The notes beneath the pieces were generated by a model, which saw only the letters and a program-made list of their open reading frames with translations, did no database searches and had not been told where the DNA came from. The position numbers and the translations under genes are program-made. A stretch of 54,403 nucleotides of DNA, from positions 1-54,403 of the IMG/VR virus record IMGVR_UViG_3300013114_000124; one strand, 5' to 3'. Of this stretch, positions 1 to 48,100 are shown piece after piece. The stretch is from a virus. Taxonomy: Duplodnaviria > Caudoviricetes. Position 1 is the first letter of the stretch. The number at the start of each line of letters is the position of its first letter.

Positions 1-61
1 CGTGGTCTACTCGGTTCTTGTTTCCGTTTGCGTCTGTCCAAACTTGATTAAAATATCCCAT
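1..61 (-). CDS. Hypothetical protein, 5' part only (MGYFNQVWTDANGNKNRVDH...), runs off the window
   Basis: ATG at 61-59 after an A-rich leader, about 30 nt downstream of the tRNA-like element; frame open to the window edge. Confidence 0.55.
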   Translation of the reverse strand, partial: MGYFNQVWTDANGNKNRVDH

Positions 62-90
62 TTTCTATTTGATTTTAAGGGTTAAACTTG

Positions 91-170
91 TACCCGCAGT
101 GTGATTCGAACACACGTCTAAACATCTGTGTATCATAGATGAATTGTCCTAACCTCTAGACGATGCGGGC
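91..170 (-). ncRNA. tRNA-like RNA 1 (80 nt, aberrant 25-nt anticodon region)
   Basis: GCCCGCA/TGCGGGT acceptor stem; D arm GTCTAGAGGTTAGGAC (tRNA-Glu-like); T arm GTGTG-TTCGAAT-CACAC; variable loop AGAC; anticodon region ATTCATCTATGATACACAGATGTTT; followed by CAA, not CCA. Confidence 0.8.
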
Positions 171-183
171 GCACTTTAATTAT

Positions 184-579
184 TTATATTAAGCTATTAC
201 GTAGCTTATCTATAAACGATTCAACCTCATTGGATTGTTTTTCTATTTCGTCACTCCATACCTTTGCTAGATGAATAGAAAGGATTTGATTTTCTTTTAA
301 AACACGTTCTTTTGTCCAAATATTTTCAGTACCAAACCAAACAGTGTCCCATCCTACTACCCACATGTCCTCCATGTCTGCAACCTCTTCCCATCCTATA
401 ATATCGTCTGAGTTTTTAGAGAATGTAAGATTAACATGAGCATGGTGTTCTAACTTCTTATTTATCTCACCATATCCTAAACCGAAGTACGGATGTCTTC
501 TTGGTAGTGCAACATATCCGTTTCCCCAACCTCCTAACCCTTGTGGAGTCCAAGTGTTTTCTTTTAAAAATGCTTTCAT
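184..579 (-). CDS. Conserved phage hypothetical protein (GWGNGYV-x-LP-xx-HP...LTFS...W-x-xGWD type)
   Basis: ORF track 184..615; ATG at 579 preferred because it has an AT-rich leader and avoids overlap with the upstream gene. Confidence 0.75.
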   Translation of the reverse strand: MKAFLKENTWTPQGLGGWGNGYVALPRRHPYFGLGYGEINKKLEHHAHVNLTFSKNSDDIIGWEEVADMEDMWVVGWDTVWFGTENIWTKERVLKENQILSIHLAKVWSDEIEKQSNEVESFIDKLRNSLI

Positions 580-602
580 GATATTTATATTAAATTTGTT
601 TA

Positions 603-845
603 TTATCTCAGCCATCTGTTCAATTTTAAAGCTATTTTATATCTTAAAGTATTGCCGTGTTTTGCACGATTGATAGTGAACGCTATCTTATAGATTTGAT
701 AACCCACGACCATAGCAGTTAAGCCTACAGTTTTAGCTACTACAAATGTTTGTAGGTTAAAGCCACTAGTTTGTTCTGCTAACACTAAGCATAGCCCTGC
801 CATTATAAGCAAAGCTGATATGCTAAAAGTTAATATGTGTCTCAT
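603..845 (-). CDS. Small membrane protein (two hydrophobic segments)
   Basis: ORF with two hydrophobic helices, packed tightly in the leftward unit. Confidence 0.7.
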   Translation of the reverse strand: MRHILTFSISALLIMAGLCLVLAEQTSGFNLQTFVVAKTVGLTAMVVGYQIYKIAFTINRAKHGNTLRYKIALKLNRWLR

Positions 846-847
846 GA

Positions 848-1000
848 TTATATTAGTTTTAATTGCCTTTGCATTTCTTTATAGCGCATAATATCCCACG
901 CTTTTTTATAGCCTATGTTATGTAATTGCATTAATTTATGCACCATTTTTTCTTCGATAGACTGCACTCGCATACGTCTACGTTTTGGTTTATTTGCCAT
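848..1000 (-). CDS. Small basic hypothetical protein, 50 aa (MANKPKRRRMRVQSIEEKMVHKLMQLHNIGYKKAWDIMRYKEMQRQLKLI)
   Basis: Translated by hand; A-rich leader; stop lies 2 nt before the next ATG; below the ORF-track size cutoff. Confidence 0.7.
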   Translation of the reverse strand: MANKPKRRRMRVQSIEEKMVHKLMQLHNIGYKKAWDIMRYKEMQRQLKLI

Positions 1001-1023
1001 TTTTATTTAATTTAATTGATTTG

Positions 1024-1103
1024 CACCCATAGACAGATTCGAACTGCCGTCTATACACCGCGACGATTTTAGTGTATTGTCCTAGCCACTAGACGATATG
1101 GGC
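1024..1103 (-). ncRNA. tRNA-like RNA 2 (80 nt, 7-bp anticodon stem with 11-nt loop)
   Basis: GCCCATA/TATGGGT acceptor; D arm GTCTAGTGGCTAGGAC; ATACACT-AAAATCGTCGC-GGTGTAT arm; AGAC; T arm GGCAG-TTCGAAT-CTGTC; followed by CAA. Confidence 0.8.
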
Positions 1104-1110
1104 ATGATAT

Positions 1111-1140
1111 AAAAAGCCCTACACTTTTACATGTAGGGCT
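1111..1140 (-). terminator. Intrinsic terminator after the Rho_N-domain gene
   Basis: Minus strand AGCCCTACA-TGTAAAAG-TGTAGGGCT followed by a T run. Confidence 0.75.
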
Positions 1141-1170
1141 GTGAGGGATATGGATTGAGGCAAAAAAGGT

Positions 1171-1593
1171 TTATGCCGTTACTAAAGCTATTAATTCAGC
1201 TTTTTTCATCTTTGAAAATTTGGTTTTACCTTGTTTTTTAGCTACCTCTTTAAGCTGCGCTACGTTCATCTTCTCAATTGGAGTTAATGTAGGTGCAGTA
1301 TCAGATAAATTCGCAGCGCTTTTAATAGCCTTGTGTATTGCTTGTAACACAAAGAATGGGCTGTAATTTCCTGCCTTTGAAACTCGCACGTTCTCCTTGA
1401 ATGTAGCGTAAACATCGTTGTTTTCTCTAATCTCACTCAATATTTGAATGTATTGCGTGCTAAGCTCTATTTCATCTCTAAAAAGCCACAGTATTTTTAC
1501 TGCACCTCCTAATGATTTGCACTCTCGTTTTAACGCCTTGTTAGTGTTTAAAACGTTCATTTTGTAAGCTGAAATTTTGTTTGATTTTGCCAT
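1171..1593 (-). CDS. Protein with a C-terminal Rho N-terminal-like (HeH/SAP-like) nucleic-acid-binding domain
   Basis: C-terminal IEKMNVAQLKEVAKKQGKTKFSKMKKAELIALV fits the L..M.V.QLK..AK..G....S.M.K.ELI pattern. Confidence 0.75.
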   Translation of the reverse strand: MAKSNKISAYKMNVLNTNKALKRECKSLGGAVKILWLFRDEIELSTQYIQILSEIRENNDVYATFKENVRVSKAGNYSPFFVLQAIHKAIKSAANLSDTAPTLTPIEKMNVAQLKEVAKKQGKTKFSKMKKAELIALVTA

Positions 1594-1637
1594 AATTTAA
1601 AAATTTAATTATTGTTTATTGATTTTAATTAATAGAT

Positions 1638-2337
1638 GCCCATGACAATATGCACTACGTGTCATGGGCTATTGATATGTACCACTTTTGTGGATTTCAC
1701 GCACTGGTTTACTGCGCTTATGTAAATATATGTATACGGATTTATTCCGTTGGTGTAACTTAATAAAATGTTGGGTTTTTTTGAGCCTTGAAATATACAC
1801 GTTAGTACCACAGCTATTTTATTGTACTTTTGATAACTCATTACCTAGAGATAAAACCCGTCTGAAAAATGTTGGCGTATCGCTGACTAATGTATATGCA
1901 GGTTAGTTTCATACCTTTCCTGCCAACCACTCGAATAATCACGCTAGGGTATTTTACTCCCATTGTCACGCAGTGGCAACCTTTTTACACCTTTACGGTG
2001 CCCTATATGCGTTCACGCTTCTCACGCCCAACTGATAGGTTTTAATTCGTTTCAGTAAGGATTCTACTCACTTTGCGCTATAATAGTAGTTTAACGTGAC
2101 TAAACTCGCCATACGATTCACCCAATGCGCTGCACTCCTAATGCTTGACCATACCTGTGCTTACAGGGCATTTCACCCTTATTATATGCTTACACCTTTG
2201 TGCTTAGCATACCTGCTGAATTGCAGTACACGTGTAGAATTGCCATTCTACCATGGCGCCATTGTGGCTCCAAAACTACTTCGCTACCTAGTAACAAAGT
2301 TTTAAAATCATGTTGAAATCGTTATTTCGTTTCAACA
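1638..2337 (-). ncRNA. Candidate long structured RNA or leader (~700 nt)
   Basis: No minus-strand ORF in the track; lies downstream of a TATGTTTG promoter; multiple hairpins, with terminal stems at 2311-2337 and 1638-1669. Confidence 0.5.
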
Positions 2338-2340
2338 GTA

Positions 2341-2372
2341 CAAACATACGTGGCATTTTTGACATAGTAAAA
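2341..2372 (-). promoter_or_regulatory. Bacteroidota sigma70-type promoter driving the leftward unit
   Basis: -7 box TATGTTTG (complement of 2341-2348); TTTTA about 20 nt upstream as a -33-like box. Confidence 0.7.
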
Positions 2373-3671
2373 TCCTGATAATCAAGCAGTTAGAAATTAA
2401 AGTGTTGATAATCAGACAGTTAGCTAAGTAGCTGAGTATCAAGGACTTAAGCAAAATGCCTTCTCGGTTAAAGCGCTGAGTATCAGGTAGTTAGCTTGTT
2501 TGTAATCGCCGTTTTTCCCAAACTGAAAACCTAGAGTAAAAAAAATTCAAAAAAAATTAAAAAGGGCTTATAAGTAACTGATATTCAAGTAGTTACAAGC
2601 AAAAAAAATTTTAAAATTAGCTTTAAAGTTAAAAGGTTGATAATCAAGCAGTTATAAAATCGAGTTTGTAAGTAGCTGAGTATCAATAAGTTATAAATTT
2701 AAAAAATTACGTTTGTAAGTATCTGAGAATCAAGTAGTTAGAGTAAGTAGTTGATAATGAGGCAGTTACGTTAAAGTGTTGATACTCAAGTAGTTAGGCT
2801 ATAAGCACGTAAAAAGTTAAAGTGCTGAAAATCAGGTAGTTAAGTTTTGGCTAGGTAGAAGTTAAGCTAAAGTACTGAGTATCAGCAGGTTATGTTTAAA
2901 TGGTGTTTGTAAGTAGCTGAGGTTCAGGCAATTACGATTCTGGCTCATAAGGTAGATTAAAGGTAAAACGTTGATAATGAGGCAGTTACGGCTAAGTAGC
3001 TGAGTATCAGGCGCTTACACCGGCACCGAGAATTAAATAGTCGTAACTATCTGAAAGTCAGGCAATTAGGCGTAACTATCTGAGAATCAGGCGCTTACAC
3101 TGGCACCGAGACTTAAATAGGCGTAACTATCTGAGTATCAGGCGCTTACACCGGCAAGCATATTTAAGTAGTTGTAACTATCTGAGAATCAGGTAATTAG
3201 ACGTAACTAATTGATAATGAGGCAGTTAGATTAACTCTTAAAGTATATGGAATTCGCGCGCGCGTAAAGAGCGTAACTATCTGAGAATGAAGCAGTTAGA
3301 CGTAACTAATTGATAATGAGGCAGTTACGGTAGAGTGGGTGAATTGAGTGGGTAAATAATTGATAATGAGGCAGTTACGGGTAAGTGTTTGATAGTCAAA
3401 TGATTAGAGTATAAGTAGTTAATAGTAATATATAAGCCTGAGTATCAAGCAGTTAGAATAAAAAACCTACAATACATAACTGTTAAGCGCCTGATTGTCA
3501 AGGTGTTAAGTTTGTTAAGCTAGTGTTTAACAGATTTTACAGATACATTAGACAAAAGATGTAACTATCTGAGTATCAGCGATTTAGACTAGTGTTTTAG
3601 GGCATTTCAATAAATAAGTTATTAAAAAAGTCAAAAAATTTGCTCGTAAAAGCCTGAAAATCAAGCCCGTA
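2368..3671. repeat. Array of about 28 palindromic 25-bp sites, consensus TAA-N5-TGA-N3-TCA-N5-TTA
   Basis: Counted by eye, e.g. TAAGTAGCTGAGTATCAAGGACTTA, TAACTATCTGAGAATCAGGCGCTTA, TAACTAATTGATAATGAGGCAGTTA; no ORFs in the region. Confidence 0.9.
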
Positions 3672-3788
3672 CGCCTAAAAAAATCGGTTTTCCTTTTCAA
3701 AAAATTCCCGTTCCATTTATGTAATACCTTTGTACCTAGTCCGTCCTCAATAATTTCAAATTGGCTTGCATATGTGGAAAATATTTCG

Positions 3789-3796
3789 TATATTGC
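3789..3796 (+). promoter_or_regulatory. -7 box of the first rightward promoter
   Basis: TATATTGC, with TTGC about 20 nt upstream. Confidence 0.6.
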
Positions 3797-3835
3797 AAAG
3801 ACAGGAAAGTTACAACTAATTAAAATTACCGTAAA

Positions 3836-3997
3836 ATGGGCGTTAAAACACCAAAAAATGAGAAAAATACAGAGGTTTCGGCATACCCGTGCTTTACTGA
3901 GGAAGCTATAACTATCACTACTTCCTTCAAAGTACCCGTACCCGTTACATACAGGGTTGCTACGCCTCGCAAAATAAATAAAAGTGACGACAACTAA
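3836..3997 (+). CDS. Hypothetical protein, 53 aa (MGVKTPKNEKNTEVSAYPCF...)
   Basis: Translated by hand; first ORF after the promoter at 3789. Confidence 0.4.
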   Translation: MGVKTPKNEKNTEVSAYPCFTEEAITITTSFKVPVPVTYRVATPRKINKSDDN

Positions 3998-4025
3998 GTT
4001 TCAAATAATTTAAAGCCAAATAAGG

Positions 4026-4373
4026 GTGAAAACACAAAAAGAGACAGAGCAGAAAATAAATCACGGCCTAAGTAATGAATTATACACATTGTTGTGCGCC
4101 GTTGATTTTAAGCCGAAGTCAATGGCTTTTTATAATAGTAGACAAAAACCTAATGGAAGTTGGGATAACTTTTTAGACCACGTTGACTGTATGCAAAAGT
4201 GCGTTAAAAACCATATGGGCGGAAACTATGGATTAGCTGACGAATATCTAATAGTAAAGCACGATGGGATATTTAATTTTCGATACTTTGGCGACTCTTC
4301 TGCTAAAATAGAAAAGATTGCAGAAGCAGATAAGGAAAGTGTTTTACAGTATTGTGTACTAAAATCGTTGTAA
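4026..4373 (+). CDS. Hypothetical protein
   Basis: ORF track; GTG start; fills the space in the rightward unit. Confidence 0.6.
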   Translation: MKTQKETEQKINHGLSNELYTLLCAVDFKPKSMAFYNSRQKPNGSWDNFLDHVDCMQKCVKNHMGGNYGLADEYLIVKHDGIFNFRYFGDSSAKIEKIAEADKESVLQYCVLKSL

Positions 4374-4397
4374 TTTAATTATAAAAACAAAGTAAAA

Positions 4398-4565
4398 ATG
4401 GAAGATTTAAAAGTATTAGCCACAGCGCTAAATGACGCTACTAAAAAAGGGGCCTTCAATCTTGATGAAGCAGTAGCGATTTCTCAATCAATTAACAATT
4501 TAGTTAAGGCGTTGAAAAATTGTGAAAAATGCAAGCCTTGCGACTCAAATTGTGAAAAAGAATAG
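4398..4565 (+). CDS. Small helical hypothetical protein, 55 aa, with Cys-rich tail (MEDLKVLATALNDATKKGAFNLDEAVAISQSINNLV...)
   Basis: Translated by hand; A-rich leader AAAAACAAAGTAAAAATG. Confidence 0.7.
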   Translation: MEDLKVLATALNDATKKGAFNLDEAVAISQSINNLVKALKNCEKCKPCDSNCEKE

Positions 4566-4697
4566 CACTTTGTCGGATAAATTGACATGTTTTTAAATAA
4601 AACTATGGTTTTTCCGTAAAATTATTGTATTTGTTTTATGTTTATATTTGTACTGTTGTATTAAAATGATTATAATATAGCGTAAGCAATCGAAACT

Positions 4698-4726
4698 AGC
4701 CTACCTCTTTCGGGGTAGGTTTTTTT
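4698..4726 (+). terminator. Intrinsic terminator
   Basis: CCTACCTC-TTTCG-GGGTAGG hairpin followed by a T run. Confidence 0.8.
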
Positions 4727-4787
4727 ATGCTCCAATTTTTCTTATATTGTTACCCTAAAACGTTTTAATAATTAAAATCATAGTATT

Positions 4788-5117
4788 ATGGCAAAGAATG
4801 GGCCCGTTAAAAAGGGGAAAAAGAAGACCCACGTAGTAAAGGGTAAAAAGAATACTACATTGGTCACGAGTAAGTCTGTATCGGACGCTAAGAGTAAATC
4901 AGGAGTTTTTAAAAGTAGGCCTGCGTATAAAGGTAAGGAATCTAAATCAGGAGTCACAACTCACGACGGTACTTTTCATAAAGTGACTGGCCCTGTATCA
5001 AGAAGAGCTGCTAGAAAAGTCTTAGCTAAAGACAAAGCTCTATACGGAGCAAGCTCTGCGGCTCATAGTGCAAGAACTAATAGGTTCGCGACTGCAAAAA
5101 GAAGAAAAAGTAAATAA
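4788..5117 (+). CDS. Highly basic Lys/Arg-rich protein (histone-like, possibly DNA-condensing)
   Basis: Very K/R-rich; own promoter box (TATATTGT at 4743) and terminator. Confidence 0.7.
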   Translation: MAKNGPVKKGKKKTHVVKGKKNTTLVTSKSVSDAKSKSGVFKSRPAYKGKESKSGVTTHDGTFHKVTGPVSRRAARKVLAKDKALYGASSAAHSARTNRFATAKRRKSK

Positions 5118-8899: not shown

Positions 8900-9604
8900 A
8901 TGCAGAACACAAATTACGTTATTTACTACAGAGCTAGTACAGAGAAACAAAGAGATGGTTTAGGATTAGACGCGCAAAAGGCAGCGATAAGCAAATTCTT
9001 AAATAACTACGGAGGCACAATCGTAGATATAGTAGAAGAGATTGTGTCAGGTGGAGCAGACGTAAGAGAAGGTTTTAACCAAGCTTTAAAAGTAGCTAAA
9101 GAAACAAGCTCTACTTTATTAGTACACAGAATAGATAGATTATCTAGGTCAGGATTCATGACCATAGCTTTATTAGAGCAAGAAGGAGTTAACTTCATAG
9201 AAGCTGACGCGCCTAATGACTCTAGTTTCTCTAAAAACATTAAGTTCTTAGTAGCTAAAGAGGAGAAAGAGAAAATCCAAGCTAGGGTTAAAGGAGCTCT
9301 ATCAGAAATTAAAACTAAGATAGGTCAGAATGGATATCACATCTCTAAAGCAGGTAATAAGATTACATCTTTAGGCTCTCCTCAAAACTTATCAGAAGTG
9401 TCTAGACAAAAGTCAATAGTGTCAAGAAGAAACAAAGCTCTTAACAATATTAATAATAAGAAGGCTTACTCTGTAGTAGAGTTAATGGAAGGTAAATCTC
9501 TAAGAGCTATAGCAACATACCTTAACAATAACGGATTCAAAACATCTAGAGGTAAGGACTTCAGCGCCTCTCAAGTATCTAACCTACGTAAGCTTTACTC
9601 TTAA
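8900..9604 (+). CDS. Serine recombinase (resolvase/invertase family) with C-terminal DNA-binding region
   Basis: YYRASTEKQ catalytic Ser motif; GLDAQ; RIDRLSR; C-terminal SLRAIATYLNNNGFKTSRGKDF. Confidence 0.92.
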   Translation: MQNTNYVIYYRASTEKQRDGLGLDAQKAAISKFLNNYGGTIVDIVEEIVSGGADVREGFNQALKVAKETSSTLLVHRIDRLSRSGFMTIALLEQEGVNFIEADAPNDSSFSKNIKFLVAKEEKEKIQARVKGALSEIKTKIGQNGYHISKAGNKITSLGSPQNLSEVSRQKSIVSRRNKALNNINNKKAYSVVELMEGKSLRAIATYLNNNGFKTSRGKDFSASQVSNLRKLYS

Positions 9605-31248: not shown

Positions 31249-34200
31249 ATGAAACAAGAACAAGGTAAAAATACATTCATAGGAAGTAGAATGGATAAAG
31301 ATACCGACTCTCGTTTACTAGAGCCAGGTGTTTATAGAGATGCCCTTAATGTAAGGGTAGGTAATTCTAGCGGTTCTGATGTAGGGGCCTTAGAAAACTC
31401 TCTATCTAATAAAAAACTGACTAACAAAAGTTTTGGAGCTAATGCTACGTGCATAGGAATGTATTCAGATAAAAACGAACAAAAGGTATATTGGTTCGTT
31501 GTCTCAGACGATGGTAGCTACGTAATGGAACATGATTTCCCTAACGGAGTTACGTCTGTTGTATTAGAAGATACCTCAGCAGGTGTTCTCAACTTTAACA
31601 AAGAGTACTTAATAACAGGAGTTAACATTATAATAGATACAGACAAGAAAAGGAGACTTTTATATTGGACTGATAATCTAAACCCTCCTAGAAGTATTAA
31701 CATAGATAGAGCTAAGACTTACGGAGCTAACAACTTTACAGAAGAGCAGATAAGTGTAATCAAAGCTCCCCCTTTACAAAAGCCTTCTATAGCATTAGGA
31801 CAAACTAACACAGGCTTAGAGAATAACATAGAGGAAAAATTCTTAAGGTTTGCTTATAGATATAGATACCTAGACGGTGAGTATAGCGCACTCTCTTCTT
31901 TCTCTGAAACAGCTTTCTTAGCTAAGCCCTTCAACTTTGACTACGCAGTAAGTTCTAACGAAGGTATGGTAAACAACTTTAGTAAAGTTAGTATCGCCTT
32001 TAATACAGGCTCTAAACTAGTTACTGAAATAGATGTAGTGTTTAAAGAATCAGGAACTAATACAGTCTATTTAGTAGACAGTTACAAAAAAGAATCTAAG
32101 AATTGGGGAGACAATGAGAATCAATTTGTAGAGTTCTTCAACAATAAAATAAAGAAAGCTTTAGACCAAGACCAATTATTTAGGTTATATGACGCAGTGC
32201 CCCTCAAAGCAAAGGCACAAGAGTTAATAGGTAATAGGTTAGTATACGGATTCTACACAGAGAATTATAACATAGAGGACGCTAACGGTTCTGCAATAGA
32301 TGTAGATTTCTCTCTAGAGGGTATTAACACAGCTATAAATATAGGCACACCTACAGAGTCACTTAAAAGTAACAGGGATTACGAGATAGGTATAGTTTAT
32401 CTAGATAAGTACGGAAGACAAACATCTGTACTTACATCGGAGAATAATACTATAAACTTCCCTAACATAGACTCTTTAACTCAAAATCAAATTAAAGCTG
32501 TAGTAAATAGCCCTGCACCAAACTTTGCAGAAAAGTTTAGATTCTACATTAAACAAACAAGAGAGGATTACGATATAATCGTACCCACTATTTTTTATTT
32601 GGACGGGCCTTACGTATGGGTTAAATTGGAAGGTAGCGAAGACAATAAGATAGAGGAAGGAGATTACTTATATGTAAAAGCTGACACACAAGAGGTATTA
32701 CCTCAGTTGGTGCAAACCAAAGTGTTAGAGATTAAGAATCAACCCAAAGATTTCTTAGAAGACAGTAACAAGCAGTTATCAGGTAATTACATGAGATTAA
32801 AACCTAATAACTATAGGCTAGACCCTGACGACTACGAATTTTACGATTGGGACAGTTACGACAGTTCTAAAAACGCTAATGATAACCCTATAAGAGGTAA
32901 CCAATCTTATGTAGAACCTGCAGTTTATTATGGTACGTCACTATCAGATGACTTAACATCTAGCGGAACTTACACAGGCTTAGTTGACGAGAGATACGAA
33001 ATAGAGATAATAGTTACAGGAGCGACAGATGAGTTTAGATGGACTAAAGATGAAGGTCAGAATTGGTCAGCTAACACACCTATTACAGGTGCTGCTCAAG
33101 CAATAGAGAACGGAGTTGAAATAACATTCGCATCTGTAACAGGGCACAGCTTAGATGACTCTTGGGTAGTAGGAGCTAAGTCAAGTTCAGACGACAGTTT
33201 TGGAGGTTCGGAGAGTTCTAAAGCTTACGGATTTTTTAAAGGGCCTGATACAAATAACGGCGTTATATATGGAGGCGCTAGGATAGAGTGGGAATACTCT
33301 GAGTACGGAGAAGAAACTCAAAAGATAACTAGGAACTTCGTATCAACTAGAAAGTACGAAAACATAGAAGAGTGGTATTACGGAGATAATATTTACGACG
33401 AGATATCTGAAATAGGAGAGAGTAGAATATGGTTTAGAAGAGGGCTCGTAGAGTTCAATTACCCCGGCAACCAATACAATAACTCTAAGCACATCACAGT
33501 AGACCCTGCAGAGGATATGGTTATGATTGTGAAAAGTAAAGGTACTCAGAACAGCGACCTTGACGGAGTTGTAAAACTAAGAACAAGCTTAGAAATATTC
33601 CAAGCAGAGCAAAATGTAATCTTTGAAACTATACCGTTTTCAAATGATGCAGCGCCATTCTTTGAGATAGGACAAACTTACGACGTAGTTAATGGGTTCC
33701 ACACTAGCAGTAACGCTTCAGATGTAGACCAAGCTTTAGGTGTAGCAGGAGAGTTTGTACTAGATGTGTTTAACTGCATAGCTTGGGGGAACGCTTTTGA
33801 AAGCTACAAGATAAAAGATTTGTTTAACGCTAAGACTATGAAGATAGACACTAGACCTTCTGATAGTATCGAAGATTACTCAGAGAACATAAGGATAGCG
33901 TCTTTAACTTATAGCAAGGTTTATGAGCAAACTCTTAATTATAATGGTACTAATGAGTTTAACTTATCTACTATAAACTTTGTAGATATAGACGACAAGT
34001 ATAACTCTATACAGAAACTATTCTCTAGAGACACAGATTTAATCGTTTTTCAAGAAGATAAGCTACACAAAATGCCTTTTGAGAAAGACGTATTATTTAC
34101 TGCCGCAGGAGAAGGAGCTGTAACAGAAAGTAATAAAGTATTTGGTAAAGAGATTCCTTACGCAGGAGAGTTTGGTATATCTCTTAACCCTGAGAGTTTT

Positions 34201-39100: not shown

Positions 39101-42100
39101 ATGAACGAAGAATATTTAAAAGGATTACACGGACACTTAGGGATAACTGACGATTACTCAACTTGGGTAAACGCAGTACAAGGAGACGAAGAATATTTAA
39201 AAGGACTACACGGACACTTAGGAATAACTGACGATTACCAAACTTGGGCAAGTGCTGTGTGGGGAAAGACTACAGCCGATTCTATGGAGTCTCGTTTGGA
39301 TTCGGTGGTACAATTTTCTCAATCGGAATCGGAAGAGACAAATCAGGAGCAAGAAGTTACTACTTCGGAAGAAACTGAAACATTTGACACAAGTTTCCCT
39401 GAGGATATGATATCTCAAAGTAAAACGGAGAATGTTATACCTAGTGGAGATGGTACGCTTGTAATAGGTGGCGAAGAGATTTCCGTAGAAGACATGGAGA
39501 TTTCTGAACTATATGACGCGTACAAACAAGCAGGGTACATTTCTCAAGCTGACGTTTCTGAAGTAGAGGCTACAATAGAGGCTCAAGCAAAAGGAGATTT
39601 TTCTACAGTAGAAACAATAAAAGCTTACGCAAATACACTTATGAAGTATGGGCCCGCATCAGGTATGCACAGCCCTATATTTGATTATATGGATAGAGAC
39701 GAAGCCTTGTTTGCTAGACAACAGAAAAATAAGGTTGATTTTCTTAACGCTTTACCTGAAGATAAGGTAACAGAGTTAAAAGAATACGCTTTCAACAGAA
39801 CTGAGCAAATATCAGCTGATAACTTAAATGTTTTTGCTCAGAATAAACTTCTAGAAAGTAAGATTAAGACAGTTGTATCTGATTTAGAGCAGATGTCTTT
39901 ATCTATGGAAAAGATAAAAGAAGATGGCGGTGTCTTACCTAAAGAAGCTGCTGATGAGTATCTAAAGGCTTATAAAGAAGCTGTATCTTTACAAACTACT
40001 TATAAAGAAAATACTAATATACTAGAGTCTAATACAGAGGATTTAGGAGAGACTTGGGAAGAATTAGACCTTCTTAAAAGAAACTACGGCGGACTTGACT
40101 ATTATCAAGAGAAGCTGAGATTAAGCGCTGCGCATATTGCAGGTGGACTTGTTCAACTTCAAGCTATGGCAGGAAACCCTGCGACCTTAACACCTGACGT
40201 TGAGCTTATGTATACAATGCAGAAGTATAGAGAGCAAGTGGCTGCAGACGAGGATATGTTAAGGCCTGCTATGTCAGTAGAGCAGATAAACGGCTTAGAG
40301 GACTTTGGTATGTGGGCAGGTGAGCAAATAGCTAACCAATTACCTATATTATTGACACTAACAGCTACAGGCGGTACATCAGGGTTAGTTTTACTTTCTT
40401 CTTCTACAGCAGGTAGTAAGGCAGGTGAGATGACAGACTCTAATGTGAAAGGTGAAACAAACTTTTCAGCGGGAAATATACTTTTAACTAGTATAGGTCA
40501 CGGAGCAGCCGAATACTTAAGCGAGAGAGTTAGTTTAGGTATCCTTAGTAAAGGTAACAGAGTTATAAAGTCTGCGTTAAAAGGTAAGAAACCTGGAGCT
40601 AAAATACCTACACCTGAGTATTCTAGTATAAGAACAGGCGTATCTAATTACGCAAAGAAAACTTGGGGAGCAGCTTGGCAAGAAGGTAGCTCAGAGTGGG
40701 CTAACACTTTAGCTCAGAATATGTTAGATATCGCAGCGGGAGCAGAAGATGTAAACCCTTTTGACGGAGCTTTAGATGCATTTGCATCGGGCGCGTTTAT
40801 GGGTAAAGCTATGCAAACAGTTCCCTCTGTTGTAGGTATGGCTATAAGACCATTCACTAGAAAGGAAATATCTAAAAAGATTAAATCTAATCTAGAAGAT
40901 TTAGAGGCTTTAGCTTATATGTTAGAGACTCAAGATTTAAGCGAAGCGTCTCAGAACATTGTTAAAAGAAAGATGCAAAATATCATGACTCAGTCTGAGT
41001 CTATGATAAATGAAACTTTAGGAGAAACGTCTAAAGTAGGTTCTAAAGGTTTACAGAGAATATTAGAGATAGAGAAAAGAGCAGGTATATTAAGAAAGTC
41101 TGTAAAAGAAATAGAAAATTCTGATTTACCTACAGAAACTAAAACTCAAATTAAAGCTGAGGCTAAGGCTGAAGTAGACGCTTTAAGAAAAGAGAAAGAA
41201 AATATATTAGATGGGAGTAAACAAGATGGGGAGAAATCCCGAGTACAACAAGAACTCGAAGCAGCAATACAAGGAGGAGTCGAAGTTGAGCAAGGAGGAA
41301 AAGGAACTGCAGAAGTTCAAGGAGAAAATGCTGAAGCACGAGATACTGATACAGACTCTGAAGGAGTGCGGACAGATAAGCAGGGAGATACGAAACTCGA
41401 TGACGGAAAAGCAACACAAACAACTGCAGCAAAACCTGAAACTGTAGATGTAGAACCTCTAAAAAAGAGAAAGAGACAATTAGAAGAGGAGCTAGTTGAT
41501 ATAGAGGACGACGCTACTGCAGAAAAGATGGAGGCTGAAATAGAGCAGTTAAATACTCAAATATCTGAAGCTAGTAAAGTTGCTACTCCAGTAGTAGACA
41601 ATTCGGCTAAGATACAAGCTAAGGACGACGCTACTAATCAAGATGTTACTGATGAAGTATCAAATATCCAAACTAAGTTGCAGGAGGCGGGTAAACAAAA
41701 AGAGCTTGATACTTTAGGGGACAAGTATTTCAAAATTTTAGAAGACCAAGCCAAGAAGGAAGAATCAGGACAGGAGTTAGATAGATACGACAAAGCTAGA
41801 AAAACTAGAGCGTTTAATAAGATTGCTAAGTTAGGCAAAGAGTTAGGTATAGACCCTATGTATTACTTAGAGAACAAGGGCGCGCTACCTAAAGAATCTG
41901 CACCTAAGAAAGCAGCACCTAAGAAAGCAGCACCTAAGAAAGCAGCACCTAAGAAAGCAGCGCCTAAGAAACCTGCGGCTGAAAAAATAATCGAGTCTTT
42001 TGAAAAACATGTTAAAAGTAAAGGAGTTACTTGGAAATCTATGTTTGCTATGGAAGGCGAAGTGTACAACGAGTTGTACGATATGATTAGTAACAAAGAA

Positions 42101-45100
42101 ATAACTGAGGAGGAGTACGAGGCTTTTAAAAGGAGACTAAATAAAGCTAAAGATAATGTTGAGACCAAGATAGCTGAAAATCAGTACGGAAAAGGCTCTC
42201 TTATGCATAAGCTTTCTCAAGAAATTCAAAAACTTTATAAGAAACATAAAGATACTAAGGTTAAATTAGAGAAAGAGATAGATGATGTAGTAGACAAAAT
42301 CTATAGTTTAAACAGACAGAGTTTAGATGTAGATAACATGAGTGAACGTCTAAAAGAACTTGACACTCTTAATAAAAAGAGAGAGAGTTTACAAGCTAAG
42401 ATAGACGAAGCTGAAAGGAAGTATCAAGACGCTACAAATACGTTTGACGCTATAGAAGGTACAATTAGTGCTTACGGAGCAATTGCTGAGGGCGTAGACC
42501 CTAGGATAACAATCCTAAAAAAACTTGAAGGATTTATAAAAGAGTTTGAGAGTACCAAAAACCCAACTGAGCAAGAAAAAAGGTTCAACGCTCATAACGT
42601 CGAAGAAAGAAATTCTATAAAGAATAACCTTAAAGATTTCCCTACTAAAGTTCCTTATAAGAAAAAATCTCTTACTCAAGAAGATATAGAGTCTGCATTT
42701 GACCTTAACCCTGAGCAAAGTGAAGCTGCAGCTATTGTAAGTGATATAATGATAGAGAATATGGCTGCTATAGAAGGCATTTCTGTAGAGGAGATGAGAA
42801 AGAAGATAGAGTTTAAGAAAAGTAACGTTGCTCCTGACGGAAGTCTTAAGCAAGACGCTGAGAGTAATGTGCAACCTTTCTACTCCCTTATAGGTAAGGC
42901 CATGTCTAAATTGGCTAAGCTACAGCCTTCTACACCTCAAGTATGGGTTAAGAAGATAGTAGAAGAAGGTGGTAGAGGCACTAAGTCAGAGTCAGACCTA
43001 GTTAAACTAGAAACTACCTTGAGAGAGTATTTAGAGATTACTAACGCTTTAAAAATAAATAAAGGTAAGCCTAAGAAGACTATATCTTACTCAGAGGTTC
43101 TAGGAGTCATTTCTGAAACAAGTAACGTTGATATAAGAGTTATTGTTAAAAGGAGTCTTACAAAACCTCAGTTAGAGGCTGAAGAGAGATTGTGGAAACG
43201 AGACGGGGAACTAGAGGATAAGGTAGAAAAACTAGACGAAAAGATAAAGAAACTTAAAAGTGAGTTATCTGAATCCGAAATGTACACTAACCCTGAGTTA
43301 GCAGAACTTACAGCCCAACGAGCTAAAGCTATAGTAGAGGTGCGAAAACTTTTCTCTCACCTTAAAGAACTTAATGACCAAAATGTAGTTTACAGTAGTG
43401 ACTCACAATATGTGTTGCAAGGGCCTGAAGGAGGCGGTAGAACAGAGGTTATTATAGCGCTACCTTACTTAGACTTTAAAGTAATGAATGAGGAGCACTT
43501 CCAAGGTGTTGAGGATTCTATTGTAGGTTGGACTAGAAATAGTGTTAGGGTAAACCCTGCTACAAATTCTAAAGTTCTTTTAATAGAGGAGTTTCAGTCA
43601 GATTGGGCACAGAATCAAAGAAAGTACGGTGTAAAGGGAGGCCCTAAACAGAGAGAGCTTCAGAGAAGAGAGTCAAAATATCAAAAGTCTGCTCAGTACT
43701 TAGAGACGTTGGTTGAAAATTACAATGATTTCTTAAAGAAAACTTTTGGCCAATTTGCAGCTTTAAGGGGTTACGAAAAGACTTTTTACGGTTTCTTACA
43801 AAAGCCACTATCTCCATCAGACCCTATGTACACTAACTTTGGTTTTAATCACAGTTTTGTGGCTAACGGGCTTGCTCTACCTGAGACTATGGAGTTTTTA
43901 GCAAAGGTTTCTGAAATGCAAGGTAGACCTGCAACTGCTAAGAAGTTAAGAGAAGCGGCTAAAGAGGCTGAGTACAAAATATCAGAAATGATAGGGGCTC
44001 AAGAAATGCTTAATGAAGATTATATAGCCATAGCTGAACATATGGATTATGACTCTTATTTTGGAAAGGGTGCAGTAGCTGCTCATGCAGAAGATATAAA
44101 AGAGTATACAGAATTTCTTAAGAACATGCTTTCAGTTGGTAACCTTTTCTCAAATGTTCTAACTAAAATAGACCCTGACTTTAAAGACCTCGCTCCTAAC
44201 GCCATAAGAATTATTTACAATAATGTAACTTCGATAGGTGCATTAGAGAACTTTGACTCTGAAGTACAACGGGACGGTATACAAGAGGGCCTTGCAGAGA
44301 TGTTTGAAAAAGAAGGGTTCCCTAATCTAAAAACACACTTGGACGAGGTTGTAAGTGAAGTGTATAATATTATTGGCGCTCCAATAGTCTCCGGTATAGT
44401 GACGGAATACCTAGAAGGTACGGAATCTAACTTCATGATGTTCAAGGAGAGAGTATACAATCCTGTAGAAATGCCTAATCCTTACGCTAAGAACAATGCT
44501 TGGATAGGACTTACTTTCAGAAAAACTCTACAAATGGCTATTGAGCAAGGTCTAGACCAAGTGGCTTGGACTACAGGTCAGCAACAGTCTGCTAGATGGG
44601 GTCAATTAGAAGGTAAAGAAAAGCAAGGTATAGAGTACTTCTATAACAATATGATACCTAAAGAGGTATTAAAAGAGGCTAAACGATACGATAAGAACGC
44701 TAAGGTAGAAGTAATAGACTTAGACCCTTCTAATAAAGATAATAACTTGGCTGTTGGAAAACAGTTAGCTATCACTATCACGCCCGCTATGAGAATGGCT
44801 ATTCGCGAAGGTGGCGTACCACTATTCCAAAATGGCCAAAGCCCACAAGGAGCTATGTCGGTTAAGAATGGTAAGTATATCGTACACGCGATAACTAACC
44901 CTAACGTAACTACTCCTTTACATGAGTTAGCTCACGTATATGAGGATTACTTAACTCCTGAAGAGAGACAAGTAGTTTTAGGATTTGCAGGTAAGACACA
45001 GTGGGATAAAGAAACATCTGAGAAGTTTGCTAGAGGTGCTGAAAAATACTTGTCTAAAGGCACTGTACCTAACAATCCTCAGTTAGCAGAAATATTCTCT

Positions 45101-48100
45101 AAGTTCAAAGATTGGTTAACTGATATATACAACGGCATAACAGATAGTTCTATTGATATAGAGCTCAATCCTGCTATGGAGGCGATATATGAGAAGATGT
45201 TTACTCCTCAGAACAAAAACAGAAATGTCAATAAGGAAGTAAGAAAAATGCTTAGTGAAGGTAAGACTGCTAAAGAGATATTTGCAGAGTTTACATCTAA
45301 GAGTGAGAGAATGCAAGCTAAGAATATCCTTAAGAGACTGATAGCTCAACCTAAGACTCCTGAAGAGGCTTTAAAGGCAGCTAGAAAAAGTTACAATAAA
45401 GCTAAAGCAAAAGCTAAGGCTAAGAAACCTAAGAATATTTGGAAAGAAACAATCTTTAATTTAGCTAAGTATTTTACTGATAAGCAGTATCTACCTAAGA
45501 GAATGCTTAAGAAAGCGGGCGGAGATTTAGTTAGAGATTATATGGTAGCATCTAAAGGTTCGCCAGGCTACGCTAAAAGATTGTTTGATAAAGCTTACAA
45601 TAAAATATATAGAGGCTTAACTAAAGAGCAGATAGATGACCTTAATAAAATTATATTACAAAGAAGGTTTATAGCTATAGATAAGAATAGAGCTAAGAGA
45701 GGTCTAGACCCTGTAACTCACTCTGATTTCCAAAATCAAGAGACTGCTGAATTAACTTTAGAAGGTCTTAGAGAAGAGTTGGGAGATAAGGAGTTCAACG
45801 AACTTAATAAAAGAGCTACAGCGTACTTTTCTGAGTTTAAGAACTTACTAGATATGATAGAGAAGGCGGGTATAGTTAACAAAGAATTTAGAGATAGTTT
45901 CTTTGATGTAGATTATCAACCTAGATTATTCTTACAGTTCTTGCAGACACAGGAGCAAGAGAACTCTATTCAAGAAATGGGAGCGCCTACATCTACGTCA
46001 CTTACTTCTAAGCAAGTTCAAACTATGGAGAAAGGTAGTGACGAAGCTTTAGTAGTGGATTCTATGTACTTATTAGGAAGGTCTCTTAATATGAGAGCTA
46101 AGACAGTAGCTATGAACAGAACTACTACTAAACTTGCAGAGTTTATGAAAGAGAGATTAGACTACATTAAGAAAACAAAGAAGAGTATAAGTGAAGGTAA
46201 ACTAAAAGGTAAAGAACTTAAGAAGGCTAAAAAAGATATTAAGTACTTCGAAGAATTACAAAGAAGAGTTAAACTTAACCCTATTATAGGTTTCACAGAG
46301 TCAGGTAACCCTAAGTATAAGTTTAAGCCTGAGCCAGGCGAGAGAATTGTTTCTTACTACGTTAATGGTGTTAAACATCAGATGATAATGGAAGAAACGT
46401 TCTATGACCAATATAACGATAACTTAAAAGGTGTGTTTACTAATAGTGACGTAAGAGAAAAAGCTGCTGTCTTATCCGGCACAGCACTTGTTAAGACTAT
46501 AGCTACAGGTAATAACCCTGCGTTCTTCCTTACTAACTTCCCTAGAGATTTGTTCTTTGTAGCATCTTTCTCTAAGGAGTATGGTAGAAGGAATGGAGGA
46601 GTGTTCGGAGCATATAACCCTCTGTCTGCTATTTCAGTTCTTTGGGATTTTGGTAAGAGTGTATATGAAATTGCAGCTGCTAATAATACTAAATTTAAGT
46701 GGCTTAAAGATAATGGTAGTTTTGAGAAATTTGTAGAGTACGGAGGTATGTTGGATTTCTTACACACACAAGGAGAGTACAAAGGTACAAAAGGTCTTAA
46801 AGGACTGTATAACGATAAAGTTGGTAACCGAACTAAAGAGACCCTTAGCCTTGTAGGTGACGCTCTATCTCTTAAACCACTCCAAACTTATTCTGAAATA
46901 GGTTTCCGTTTAGCAGTTTTCAACAAGTCTCTTGCGAACTCTCTGAGACTTTCAGAGTATAAAGATATGAAAGACGTACCTGCTGATGTATTAGAAGAGT
47001 GGTATATTAGTGCTGTTGCGTCTGCTAGAAGTTTAACAGACTTTAGTCAAGGAGGTATTTACGCAAAAGATTTAGATGCTGTAGTACCTTACCTTAATGC
47101 GGGTATTCAAGGTACAAGGTCTGCTGTTGACGCTATAGCGGAATCACCTTCAGACACATTATATAGAATGCTTACAACAGGTTTCACGTTGACTGCTATA
47201 CCTGTCGCAGCTTCAGCTCATCTTATAGCCGGGGCTAATTGGGGAGATGACGACGAAGATATGAAAGGTTTGTCTGCGGGAGGCCAATACTTAAAAGCTT
47301 TAGAAGGTGTTAGTAGATATGATAGAATTAATTATCAAATTATTTTCACAGGGGATAAAGACGAGAGAGGTGAGTATAAATATGTTAGAATAGCTAAGCC
47401 ACACTTCGTTACGCCTGCATCTATATTAGCTCATCACTTATTAGAGGAGTATATAAGACAAGATAATAATCTTTCACCTGCAGGAGAGCAGAAGCTGATT
47501 GAAGACTTATCATTTGCTTTTGAGAAGAATATATCTCCTGTAGAATTTAATATACTAGGTAATACGGCTAGAACTCCTTTACTTAAAGCGGCATTAACTT
47601 ACGCTTTAGGTTACGACTTCTACCGTGAGCAACCTTTATCTTATCAGAAAGGTAAAGTGGCTCCTGAAGCCGAAGGTTTTGAGTCTAGAGGTGTAGAAGA
47701 TTTCTATAAAGCTATAGGAGAATATCAGCAAATGTCACCTGCTAGATTAAAGGGAGCTATTGAAAGTCTTATAACTACTCCGTCTACCTCTGCTTATGTT
47801 GCATTAGCTTATGGTGGAGCAGACGCTTTGTTCGCTGATAAAGATTTGAAAGGGCCTGCAGAAATAATGGGTGAAGCTCTTAAGAAAAGTGTTTCAGGCC
47901 GTCTTTTGAAAACTACTAGTGAGTTTAACAGAAGAGTAGATTGGGATAAGAGACTTAAAAATGAGATTGTAGCTAAAGATGTAAAGAATCTTAAAGATAG
48001 GTACAGACTTAAAGAGTTGGCTATCCAAGAAAGGGACGGTAAGGTTACAAGAGGTGAGGTTATGGACTACTTGAAGAAGATAGGGAATGATAATCTTATG

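Follow-up and report, generated by a model that had tools for sequence, protein, structure and literature searches.

A predicted multi-domain RNA of ~700 nt conserved upstream of orf140 in marine flavobacterial podophages of the Callevirus group

The lambda boxB and HK022 put RNAs are elements of 15 to 70 nt, put comprising two short stem-loops (~70 nt) right after the early promoter. OLE, a highly structured RNA of ~600 nt from the chromosomes of extremophilic Firmicutes, is encoded beside the gene for a protein partner of its complex. Among phage and prophage RNAs, ROOL averages 581 nt, a size that PMC5737381 describes as surpassed only by ribosomal RNAs, GOLLD, and group II introns; it contains several multistem junctions and often lies near tRNA genes, with which it is possibly cotranscribed. 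GOLLD, a giant ornate RNA, is often prophage encoded and tRNA adjacent (PMC5737381, PMC12286853). In the account of PMC12286853, GOLLD and ROOL form RNA-only cages and OLE forms a dimer. Here we analyze a minus-strand stretch of ~707 nt in the IMG/VR virus record IMGVR_UViG_3300013114_000124, a stretch of DNA of 54,403 nt (hereafter the window). An initial annotation of the window had proposed this stretch, which precedes a gene for a protein of 140 amino acids (orf140), as a new large noncoding RNA or an antitermination leader.

Comparative analysis indicates that the stretch specifies a previously uncatalogued RNA family, ~650 to 710 nt long and multi-domain, in Callevirus-group podophages (Pervagoviridae) of marine flavobacteria. 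As judged from the aligned homologues, the family is new but its kind is known; with GOLLD and ROOL it has this kind, not homology, in common. Several features of large ornate noncoding RNAs are present: a length of ~707 nt (above ~500), junctions with covariation, a phage contig, and tRNA genes nearby. GOLLD is the only other phage class of comparable size in the two sources (PMC5737381, PMC12286853), and the RNA described here is smaller. Like ROOL, it is large, has several multistem junctions and few invariant nucleotides, and is phage encoded near tRNA genes. Unlike ROOL, it is fixed at one locus before one protein gene; its carriers are phages of Bacteroidota, outside the phyla named in the ROOL description; and no pseudoknots or oligomer contacts have been identified in it. 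OLE is the best precedent for a partnership between the RNA and orf140, although OLE is chromosomal and orf140 had no detected relation to OLE partner proteins. The likeness to lambda nut/boxB and HK022 put lies in position, just after an early promoter and before the first early gene, and in a hairpin with a GNRNA-type pentaloop. However, the body of the RNA is ten times larger, the stem of its terminal hairpin is 13 bp long and bulged, and neither a boxA nor an arginine-rich N-like protein turned up, although neither was searched for. A put-type RNA is not supported: its post-promoter position fits, but a size of 707 nt, an architecture of 18 helices, and the lack of an Rfam match do not, and only the 3' hairpin looks nut/boxB-like.

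None of the 4227 families of Rfam 15 matched the RNA. The collection includes GOLLD, ROOL, OLE, HEARO, group I and II introns, RNase P, tmRNA, 6S RNA, riboswitches, and put-type leaders. At gathering scores the window gave two tRNA matches only, and at E values of up to 10 over positions 1000 to 3700 nothing fell within 1632 to 2338. The RNA region of Cellulophaga phage Calle_1 likewise gave no match, and the loci of five metagenomic relatives gave tRNA matches only. Our literature searches found no description of the RNA. A survey of structured RNAs in IMG/VR reports candidates of 29 to 151 nt only (PMC10690425); the hairpin, or pieces of the RNA described here, may figure in its supplementary lists. 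Taken together, absence of coding capacity, a conserved place, compensatory structure, and the lack of an Rfam match favor the first of the two initial proposals, a new large noncoding RNA.

A noncoding stretch conserved with its neighboring gene

The window (54.4 kb, with a completeness estimate of 75%) encodes terminase, portal, capsid, and GroEL proteins. The nearest relatives are Cellulophaga phages: the large terminase of the window shares 64% identity with its counterparts in phi38:1, phi40:1, and Calle_1-3 (Pervagoviridae, Callevirus) and 46% with those of Flavobacterium phages. Genes run leftward to the left of ~2340 and rightward to the right of ~3700, so that the RNA opens the leftward arm of a divergent control region. 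As initially described, the interval between the promoter box and the first ATG of orf140 (748 nt) contains no open reading frame (ORF): each of the six frames of 1594 to 2400 has 11 to 21 stop codons. TAA, TAG, and TGA all occur in every frame, so that no single stop reassignment would open one. The proposed GC enrichment over the flanks held for 1801 to 2300 but not for the 3' third (1600 to 1800); in 200-nt windows, GC content was 0.40 to 0.45 over 1801 to 2300, compared with 0.31 to 0.34 at 1401 to 1900 and 0.25 to 0.345 at 2301 to 2800. All seven hairpins that the initial annotation listed were found in the sequence. The minus strand folded better than its shuffled controls (minimum free energy of -209 kcal/mol versus -171.6 ± 7.9; z = -4.76; 0 of 20 shuffles as good), and the plus strand less so (-172.9 versus -158.7 ± 5.6; z = -2.54). 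This asymmetry fits an RNA with G-U pairs.

A blastn search ("distant" setting) with positions 1500 to 2500 against 50,697 phage records gave no match, and relatives were therefore sought through orf140. In a large protein collection, 19 of 43 candidates were relatives of orf140 at E ≤ 0.001, ten of them 81 to 86% identical and one 99% identical. An alignment of 15 orf140-type proteins led to 27 loci (24 metagenomic, 2 viral, and 1 from a genome). With the RNA of the window as query, nhmmer returned approximately full-length matches in five of these loci, each directly upstream of an orf140 homologue on the same strand: L026 (E = 6e-161), L027 (6e-107), L031 (1e-20), and L029 and L030 (1e-10), the last two nearly identical to each other. 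A sixth locus, L028, contained only the 3' part of the RNA, at the contig end. A covariance model of the 5' domain (R1, described below) then detected homologues beyond the reach of BLAST and nhmmer in two cultured isolates, phi38:1 (33348-33485, minus strand; 28.8 bits, E = 8e-6 in 3.7 kb) and Calle_1 (L054, 2886-3032; 32.1 bits, E = 3e-6 in 7.3 kb). Both matches lie in gaps that have no annotation or a doubtful one, ahead of the orf140 homologues gp056 and gp082, and the two phages are 95% identical to each other across ~760 nt.

The detectable family thus consists of the window lineage, L026, L027, L031, L029/L030, L028 (partial), and the Callevirus isolates. An orf140 homologue lies downstream of the RNA in every member found. 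Nucleotide identity to the window was 86.2% (L026) and 75.4% (L027) for the RNA and 80.6% and 77.4% for orf140 DNA; the noncoding stretch is therefore at least as well conserved as the gene. These identities show purifying selection on the RNA at least as strong as that on its neighbor. Its length and position were kept across lineages in which orf140 is only 42 to 56% identical, and the predicted RNA is, in these alignments, conserved in both respects in at least four diverged lineages.

Other routes to relatives added no member. Loci of relatives of the ORF at 184-615 (7 loci) held no RNA homologue, a single-protein scan of viral contigs for orf140 gave none, and a scan of viral contigs with the full 3' hairpin pattern gave 0 matches. 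A 5'-domain pattern scan of the viral contigs gave one match (L053), a chance one in coding DNA. A scan with AATAANGGTGAAATRCCNTGT returned six viral stretches, namely, phi38:1, Calle_1, and four others. Three of the four (L117, L118, and L120) had the same partial R1 match of 17.4 bits and were rejected; of these, L117 was inspected, and there the match falls within an ORF. The fourth, L119, had no R1 match. On a 73.7-kb viral contig, L050, the third model, R3, matched weakly at 3133-3265 (14.5 bits, E = 0.35), ~740 to 870 nt upstream of an orf140 relative that is 49% identical. L050 may be a further diverged member and is not counted here. In three loci from more distant phages (orf140 44 to 45% identical), a different AT-rich stretch of ~560 nt occupies the same slot, between an ORF-free region and a bulged hairpin (L033, 3330-3900; L034, 3410-3980; L035, 470-1040). 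Two lineages share 68% identity in this stretch, in which 34 of 136 predicted pairs are compensatory, versus 1 to 4 in controls in which pairing partners were slid. Since models R1 to R3 miss it, the stretch represents either a homologue that has diverged very far or an RNA unrelated to the family. Its presence hints that the slot rather than one sequence family is the conserved thing.

Covariation and secondary structure

Compensatory changes among the homologues were well above both shuffled and slid controls. RNAalifold applied to six sequences gave a structure of 18 helices and 86 pairs for the whole RNA. In the alignment, 93.8% of cells were paired, versus 78.4 ± 1.2% in shuffles, and 43 of the 86 pairs had changed on both sides, versus 23.4 ± 2.9 (reached by 0 of 500 shuffles). 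When pairing partners were slid by 1 to 3 columns, only 2 to 10 pairs had changed on both sides. The number of further pair types was not significant (70 versus 67.0 ± 3.6; reached by 124 of 500 shuffles).

Since this structure came from the alignment on which it was scored, a partly independent test was made with the 5'-domain model. R1 covers window positions 2128 to 2271 with 38 pairs and was built from five sequences; the seven-member alignment is fitted to R1, and so leans toward the structure, but it includes phi38:1 and Calle_1, which were not used in the derivation. Of the 38 pairs, 28 had changed on both sides among the seven members, versus 14.5 ± 2.5 in shuffles (0 of 500) and 2 to 10 in slid controls, and 91.6% of cells were paired. 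By eye, the differences of phi38:1 and Calle_1 include paired changes in three helices. The helices are thus shown, within the limits of these alignments, to be maintained by compensatory substitutions in at least four lineages, including phi38:1 and Calle_1.

The resulting architecture is given in Table 1. Unpaired stretches of the 5' domain, namely, a CRAAUYAG loop, a UAA-linker, and a GAAAU loop, are conserved. For the central domain, model R2 scored 60.7 bits in L031 (E = 6e-14) and gave weak syntenic matches in L029 (13.4 bits, E = 0.1) and Calle_1 (12.5 bits, E = 0.18), so this domain is less well conserved; helices 10, 12, and 13 of the six-sequence structure each had four pairs changed on both sides. 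Between-lineage alignment was poor in the 3' region (1682-1893).

TABLE 1 Features of the RNA, its transcription unit, and the adjoining control region in the window
Feature	Position	Strand	Description
Large structured RNA	1632-2338	-	~707 nt; 5' end inferred from the promoter, 3' end set at the end of the terminal hairpin plus CUA tail
P1, 5'-terminal hairpin	2311-2337	-	10 pairs; starts ~3 nt after the presumed transcription start
P2 hairpin	2278-2300	-	10 pairs, UAG loop; columns 42-64 of the three-sequence alignment, with one compensatory pair and three single-sided changes
5' domain	2128-2271	-	Closing helix round four hairpins (five-helix junction) plus two flanking hairpins; model R1
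Central domain	1894-2043	-	Includes CCUAU/AUAGG helix and CACC-GUAAA-GGUG hairpin; model R2
Less conserved 3' region	1682-1893	-	Local hairpins ACGGA-AUAAA-UCCGU (1736-1750) and CCAC-AAAA-GUGG (1682-1693); helices 14-17 of the six-sequence structure and helices 503-591, 534-558, 614-628, and 671-682 (alignment columns) of the three-sequence prediction
Terminal hairpin module	1633-1669	-	9-bp variable stem, A-U pair, bulged C, 3-bp top helix, GNRNA pentaloop (GUGCA here), conserved A-U-CUA tail; helix 18 of the six-sequence structure
Promoter -7 box	2341-2348	-	TATGTTTG, TAnnTTTG type, directly upstream of the RNA
orf140	1171-1593	-	140 aa, basic helical protein; last ~35 aa Rho_N/SAP-like
Intrinsic terminator	1115-1140	-	10-bp stem plus T-run; closes the RNA-orf140 unit
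Palindromic repeat array	2375-3674	.	~24 copies of the 11-bp core YTSATWHTCAR in ~26-nt units

Five of the seven initially listed hairpins covaried in the relatives (GTAGAAT/ATTCTAC, AGGGT/GCCCT, CACC/GGTG, CCAC/GTGG, and the 3' stem). The ACGGA/TCCGT hairpin was invariant among three close relatives, and the 5' hairpin was invariant or broken within the close group, with hairpins of different sequence seen by eye at its place in the alignments of L029, L031, and phi38:1. The three closest sequences alone gave 185 predicted pairs, 32 of them compensatory. A long-range helix joining 5' and 3' parts in that prediction was rejected: it showed no covariation and conflicts with a local hairpin (helix 8) that covaries at four of four pairs. 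Loops that are self-complementary in all lineages were looked for by eye and none was seen, and kissing of the terminal loop with an internal UCUCUAGGU segment was rejected because the segment is not kept in L027.

A further alternative is that the stretch has no function as an RNA and is instead the remnant of a gene, a group of small ORFs, or an intergenic spacer with hairpins that arose by chance. Single-sequence z-scores of the size found here can come from composition, and one 35-amino-acid ORF is open in the closest relative. However, all six frames contain stops, and the small-ORF alternative that the initial annotation had left open fails among the relatives. Of the four minus-strand ORFs of 35 to 59 amino acids, three are already frameshifted or stopped in L026 or L027; the fourth, the 35-amino-acid ORF, is open in L026 only, with a stop in L027 and breaks in L031, L029, and L030. 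A protein-coding gene or small-ORF cluster was accordingly rejected, no open frame being conserved among relatives. Together with the kept length and position and the large excess of compensatory changes over shuffled and slid controls, these observations make a nonfunctional stretch most improbable.

The transcription unit, its terminal hairpin, and the adjoining repeats

In every lineage the RNA is immediately preceded by a TAnnTTTG box, which we take to be the Bacteroidota -7 consensus. The box reads TATGTTTG in the window, L026, and L027; TATATTTG in L031; TACATTAG, which has a single mismatch, in L029; and TACATTTG in phi38:1 and Calle_1. The TTTT run at 2369-2372, 20 nt upstream of the box, is likely the -33 element. 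On the minus strand of positions 1 to 5000, the sole other TAnnTTTG box is at 2271-2278, inside the RNA. Downstream, a U-tailed hairpin of differing sequence stands behind the orf140 homologue in five of six loci (the window, L026, L029, L031, and Calle_1); in L027 a second bulged hairpin takes its place. From these positions the RNA is, by inference, cotranscribed with orf140, and the conserved unit consists of promoter, RNA, bulged hairpin, orf140, and terminator.

The orf140 protein matched Pfam Rho_N at E = 7.7e-5, below the curated cutoff. An AlphaFold2 model (predicted local distance difference test score of 80.4) was all-helical and soluble-looking, and its sole fold matches were the N-terminal helices of Rho, over 34 to 37 amino acids. 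A fold search of the PDB gave no match at E ≤ 0.001, and the best score in the protein Atlas was 0.77, below lead level. Given the order of RNA, hairpin, and small gene, we considered a type III toxin-antitoxin (ToxI) RNA and rejected it: no tandem repeats were seen by eye (no repeat tool was run on the stretch), and orf140 is all-helical.

The terminal hairpin proved to be a separate module. Its loop-and-tail pattern (ACGUAGAGAAUAUU, 11 nt, CUA) occurred at 63 places in 62 viral IMG/VR stretches (L055-L116). At 45 of the 63 places, at least nine contiguous pairs surround the loop; at 16 more, as read from the printed sequences, there is a stem with one mismatch or a one-base shift. No stem was present at the remaining two, L059 and L092, which are the same sequence inside an 812-amino-acid ORF. 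Over ten stem positions, 38 distinct instances with 32 different stems gave 312 Watson-Crick pairs, 37 G-U, 9 A-C, and 22 others. That so many different stems are kept paired, with G-U pairs outnumbering A-C, argues that the stem covaries and folds on the sense strand. The 3-bp top helix is GUA/UAU, or GUG/CAU in Calle_1 and one L067 copy, and the pentaloop is G-N-R-N-A in all five variants seen. The hairpins are intergenic, in the same orientation as their neighbors, and number one or two per genome (one in the window). They often precede a start codon by 19 to 47 nt (40 to 60 nt in the case of the terminal hairpin of the large RNA). Further copies lie at 3924-3957 and 4458-4491 in L027 and at 3829-3862 in L033. 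The module had no Rfam match. Genes downstream of 36 hairpins belong to unrelated families, and two hairpins flank orf140 in L027; both observations are compatible with hairpins serving as integron-like cassette boundaries. The hairpin may be a protein-bound punctuation element, that is, a processing, stabilizing, or nut-like site. Apart from phi38:1, the large RNA is present upstream in none of the hairpin contigs, R1 to R3 having no significant match in 61 hairpin loci.

This distribution bears on the second of the initial proposals, broadened here to a cis-acting leader: the 5' fold would control orf140, and any genes reached by read-through, and would have no role off the message. Such control could work through antitermination or attenuation at the terminal hairpin, through the stability of the message, or at the level of translation. 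One promoter and one U-tailed terminator appear to serve the RNA and orf140 as a unit, the adjacency is kept in every member, and the position of the terminal hairpin ahead of the start codon recurs with hairpins of the same type in many other phages. Its bulged stem and GNRNA pentaloop also recall protein-bound hairpins such as lambda boxB. Nonetheless, a multi-domain junction structure of ~650 nt far exceeds the needs of known leaders of this kind, the hairpin occurs in ~60 other viral contigs without the RNA upstream, some orf140 relatives have no leader at all, and the RNA is as strongly conserved as a coding gene. We regard a purely cis-acting role as unlikely, while taking it seriously as an alternative.

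Upstream of the promoter, 24 of the 25 repeat cores in the window fall within 2340 to 3720 and fill the 1.3-kb divergent intergenic region, the last copy abutting the -33 region. Core copies also stand just upstream of the RNA in L026, L027, and L031 (14 each) and in L029 (29); Calle_1 and L033 have 0. The array has the look of a set of operators or iterons recognized by a dimeric DNA-binding protein. An iteron-like array raises the alternative that the RNA is linked to replication and, like ColE1 RNA II, serves as a pre-primer or activates an origin, running toward an AT-rich stretch. The transcript would start at the edge of the array of ~24 cores, an arrangement kept in four other lineages; cumulative GC skew has a local minimum at ~2300 to 2400; and the region past the terminal hairpin is very AT-rich. 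The skew turn, however, coincides with the switch in gene orientation and is therefore not specific evidence. In addition, Calle_1 has the RNA but none of the cores, transcription heads away from the array, and nothing ties the array to replication rather than to control of transcription. These points make a replication RNA improbable.

Next after the conserved unit is a tRNA-like gene (1024-1103, minus strand; Rfam tRNA match), 530 nt downstream of the RNA, and tRNA arrays lie on both sides of the RNA locus in Calle_1 and phi38:1. Further tRNA-like genes of about 80 nt occur in the window (91-170, minus strand), L029 (4300-4373), L026 (2133-2213), L031 (3502-3590), and L027 (5679-5758). These and the gene at 1024-1103 score 41 to 51 bits with Rfam tRNA, carry an 11-nt insert, and have oversized or odd anticodon arms; by eye, their acceptor, D, and T arms presumably resemble the tRNA-Glu type. 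ARAGORN made no call in the window and a 4-base anticodon call in L029. At comparable places, phi38:1 has ordinary 72-nt tRNA-Glu genes, plus an RtcB ligase gene.

Two further genes of the window were noted. Behind the structural genes, a 3083-amino-acid ORF (39101-48352, plus strand) had weak Pfam matches only (LPD38, E = 2.7e-4) and gave no sign of being a polymerase. Its product is probably a polyvalent protein of giant size that is part of the virion or injected. According to PMC5335546, phi38:1 encodes no RNA polymerase. Among the early rightward genes, 8900-9604 (plus strand) encodes a serine recombinase/invertase (Resolvase, E = 3.8e-20), whose phi38:1 counterpart is gp075, annotated "DNA invertase."

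Expression and probable function

Among the listed sequencing runs, 20 from 11 studies hold part of positions 1150 to 2450, and 5 of the 20 are metatranscriptomes. Three metatranscriptome runs from three studies hold parts of the RNA: X6 (1681-2077 and 2066-2299), X8 (2152-2315, a contig identical to the window), and X13 (1860-2011 and 2067-2204). These contigs give a weak hint that the RNA is expressed. Contigs from the RNA runs cover no part of orf140 or the array, while a DNA run covers 1162 to 2366; this gap was not used as evidence. Strand-specific RNA sequencing of phi38:1 identified six putative phage noncoding RNAs in intergenic regions (PMC5335546). This is the same phage in which R1 found a homologue, and the reported transcripts are likewise intergenic and strand specific; the main text of that study gives no coordinates, structure, or family for them, and the RNA described here may be among them.

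We consider it probable that the folded RNA itself is the functional product, a stable early RNA or ribonucleoprotein. This reading follows from its size and junctions, gene-level conservation, hairpins at the 5' and 3' termini, and phage and tRNA-adjacent context; the features shared with GOLLD and ROOL, and a pairing with orf140 that recalls OLE, supply the analogy. In the mechanism we propose, host RNA polymerase would initiate at the conserved TAnnTTTG box, next to the operator-like array. While being made, the leading ~700 nt would fold into the parts listed in Table 1, from the 5' cap hairpin, five-helix junction, and central domain to the variable region and terminal bulged hairpin. Transcription would run on through orf140 to the U-tailed terminator, and a stable early RNA would be freed or protected at the terminal hairpin. 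The folded RNA could then serve as a scaffold or in a ribonucleoprotein, possibly with the basic orf140 protein.

Several observations weigh against the folded RNA as product. No U-tailed terminator lies between the RNA and orf140, so that the RNA is formally a 5' leader. Some orf140 relatives sit behind another ORF with gaps of 30 to 305 nt, which leave no room for the RNA; the protein thus does not strictly need it. Beyond its short Rho_N/SAP-like tail, the fold of orf140 bears no sign of RNA binding. The independent lineages in hand number four or five, and R1, R2, and R3 had no significant match in remoter loci with an orf140 relative; within the reach of these models, then, the family is narrow. 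Contigs from RNA libraries may include DNA and show neither ends nor levels. Finally, the tested structures were derived from or fitted to the same alignments, which inflates the pairing measures; the slid controls and the two isolates outside the derivation argue against an artifact.

A more ambitious proposal, which we hold possible but tentative, is that this RNA founds a third class of giant ornate phage RNA after GOLLD and ROOL, transcribed as soon as infection of marine Flavobacteriia begins and forming a higher-order particle, of RNA only or of RNA and orf140, that does a job no protein does there. If so, the role of giant phage RNAs could become directly testable in cultured, genetically approachable pairs of phi38:1 or Calle_1 with Cellulophaga. 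Most RNA motifs are known from metagenomes only, unlike this one: with isolates, a culturable host, and published strand-specific RNA sequencing, its expression, ends, deletion phenotype, partners, and three-dimensional structure can all be tested. The hairpin module and the operator-like array together would define the control region of these phages. Very few bacterial or viral RNA classes are this large and complex, and an unrelated, covarying family would be a rare addition to them. These marine flavobacterial phages are an abundant group, and the promoter from which the RNA is apparently transcribed is the first in their early leftward unit.

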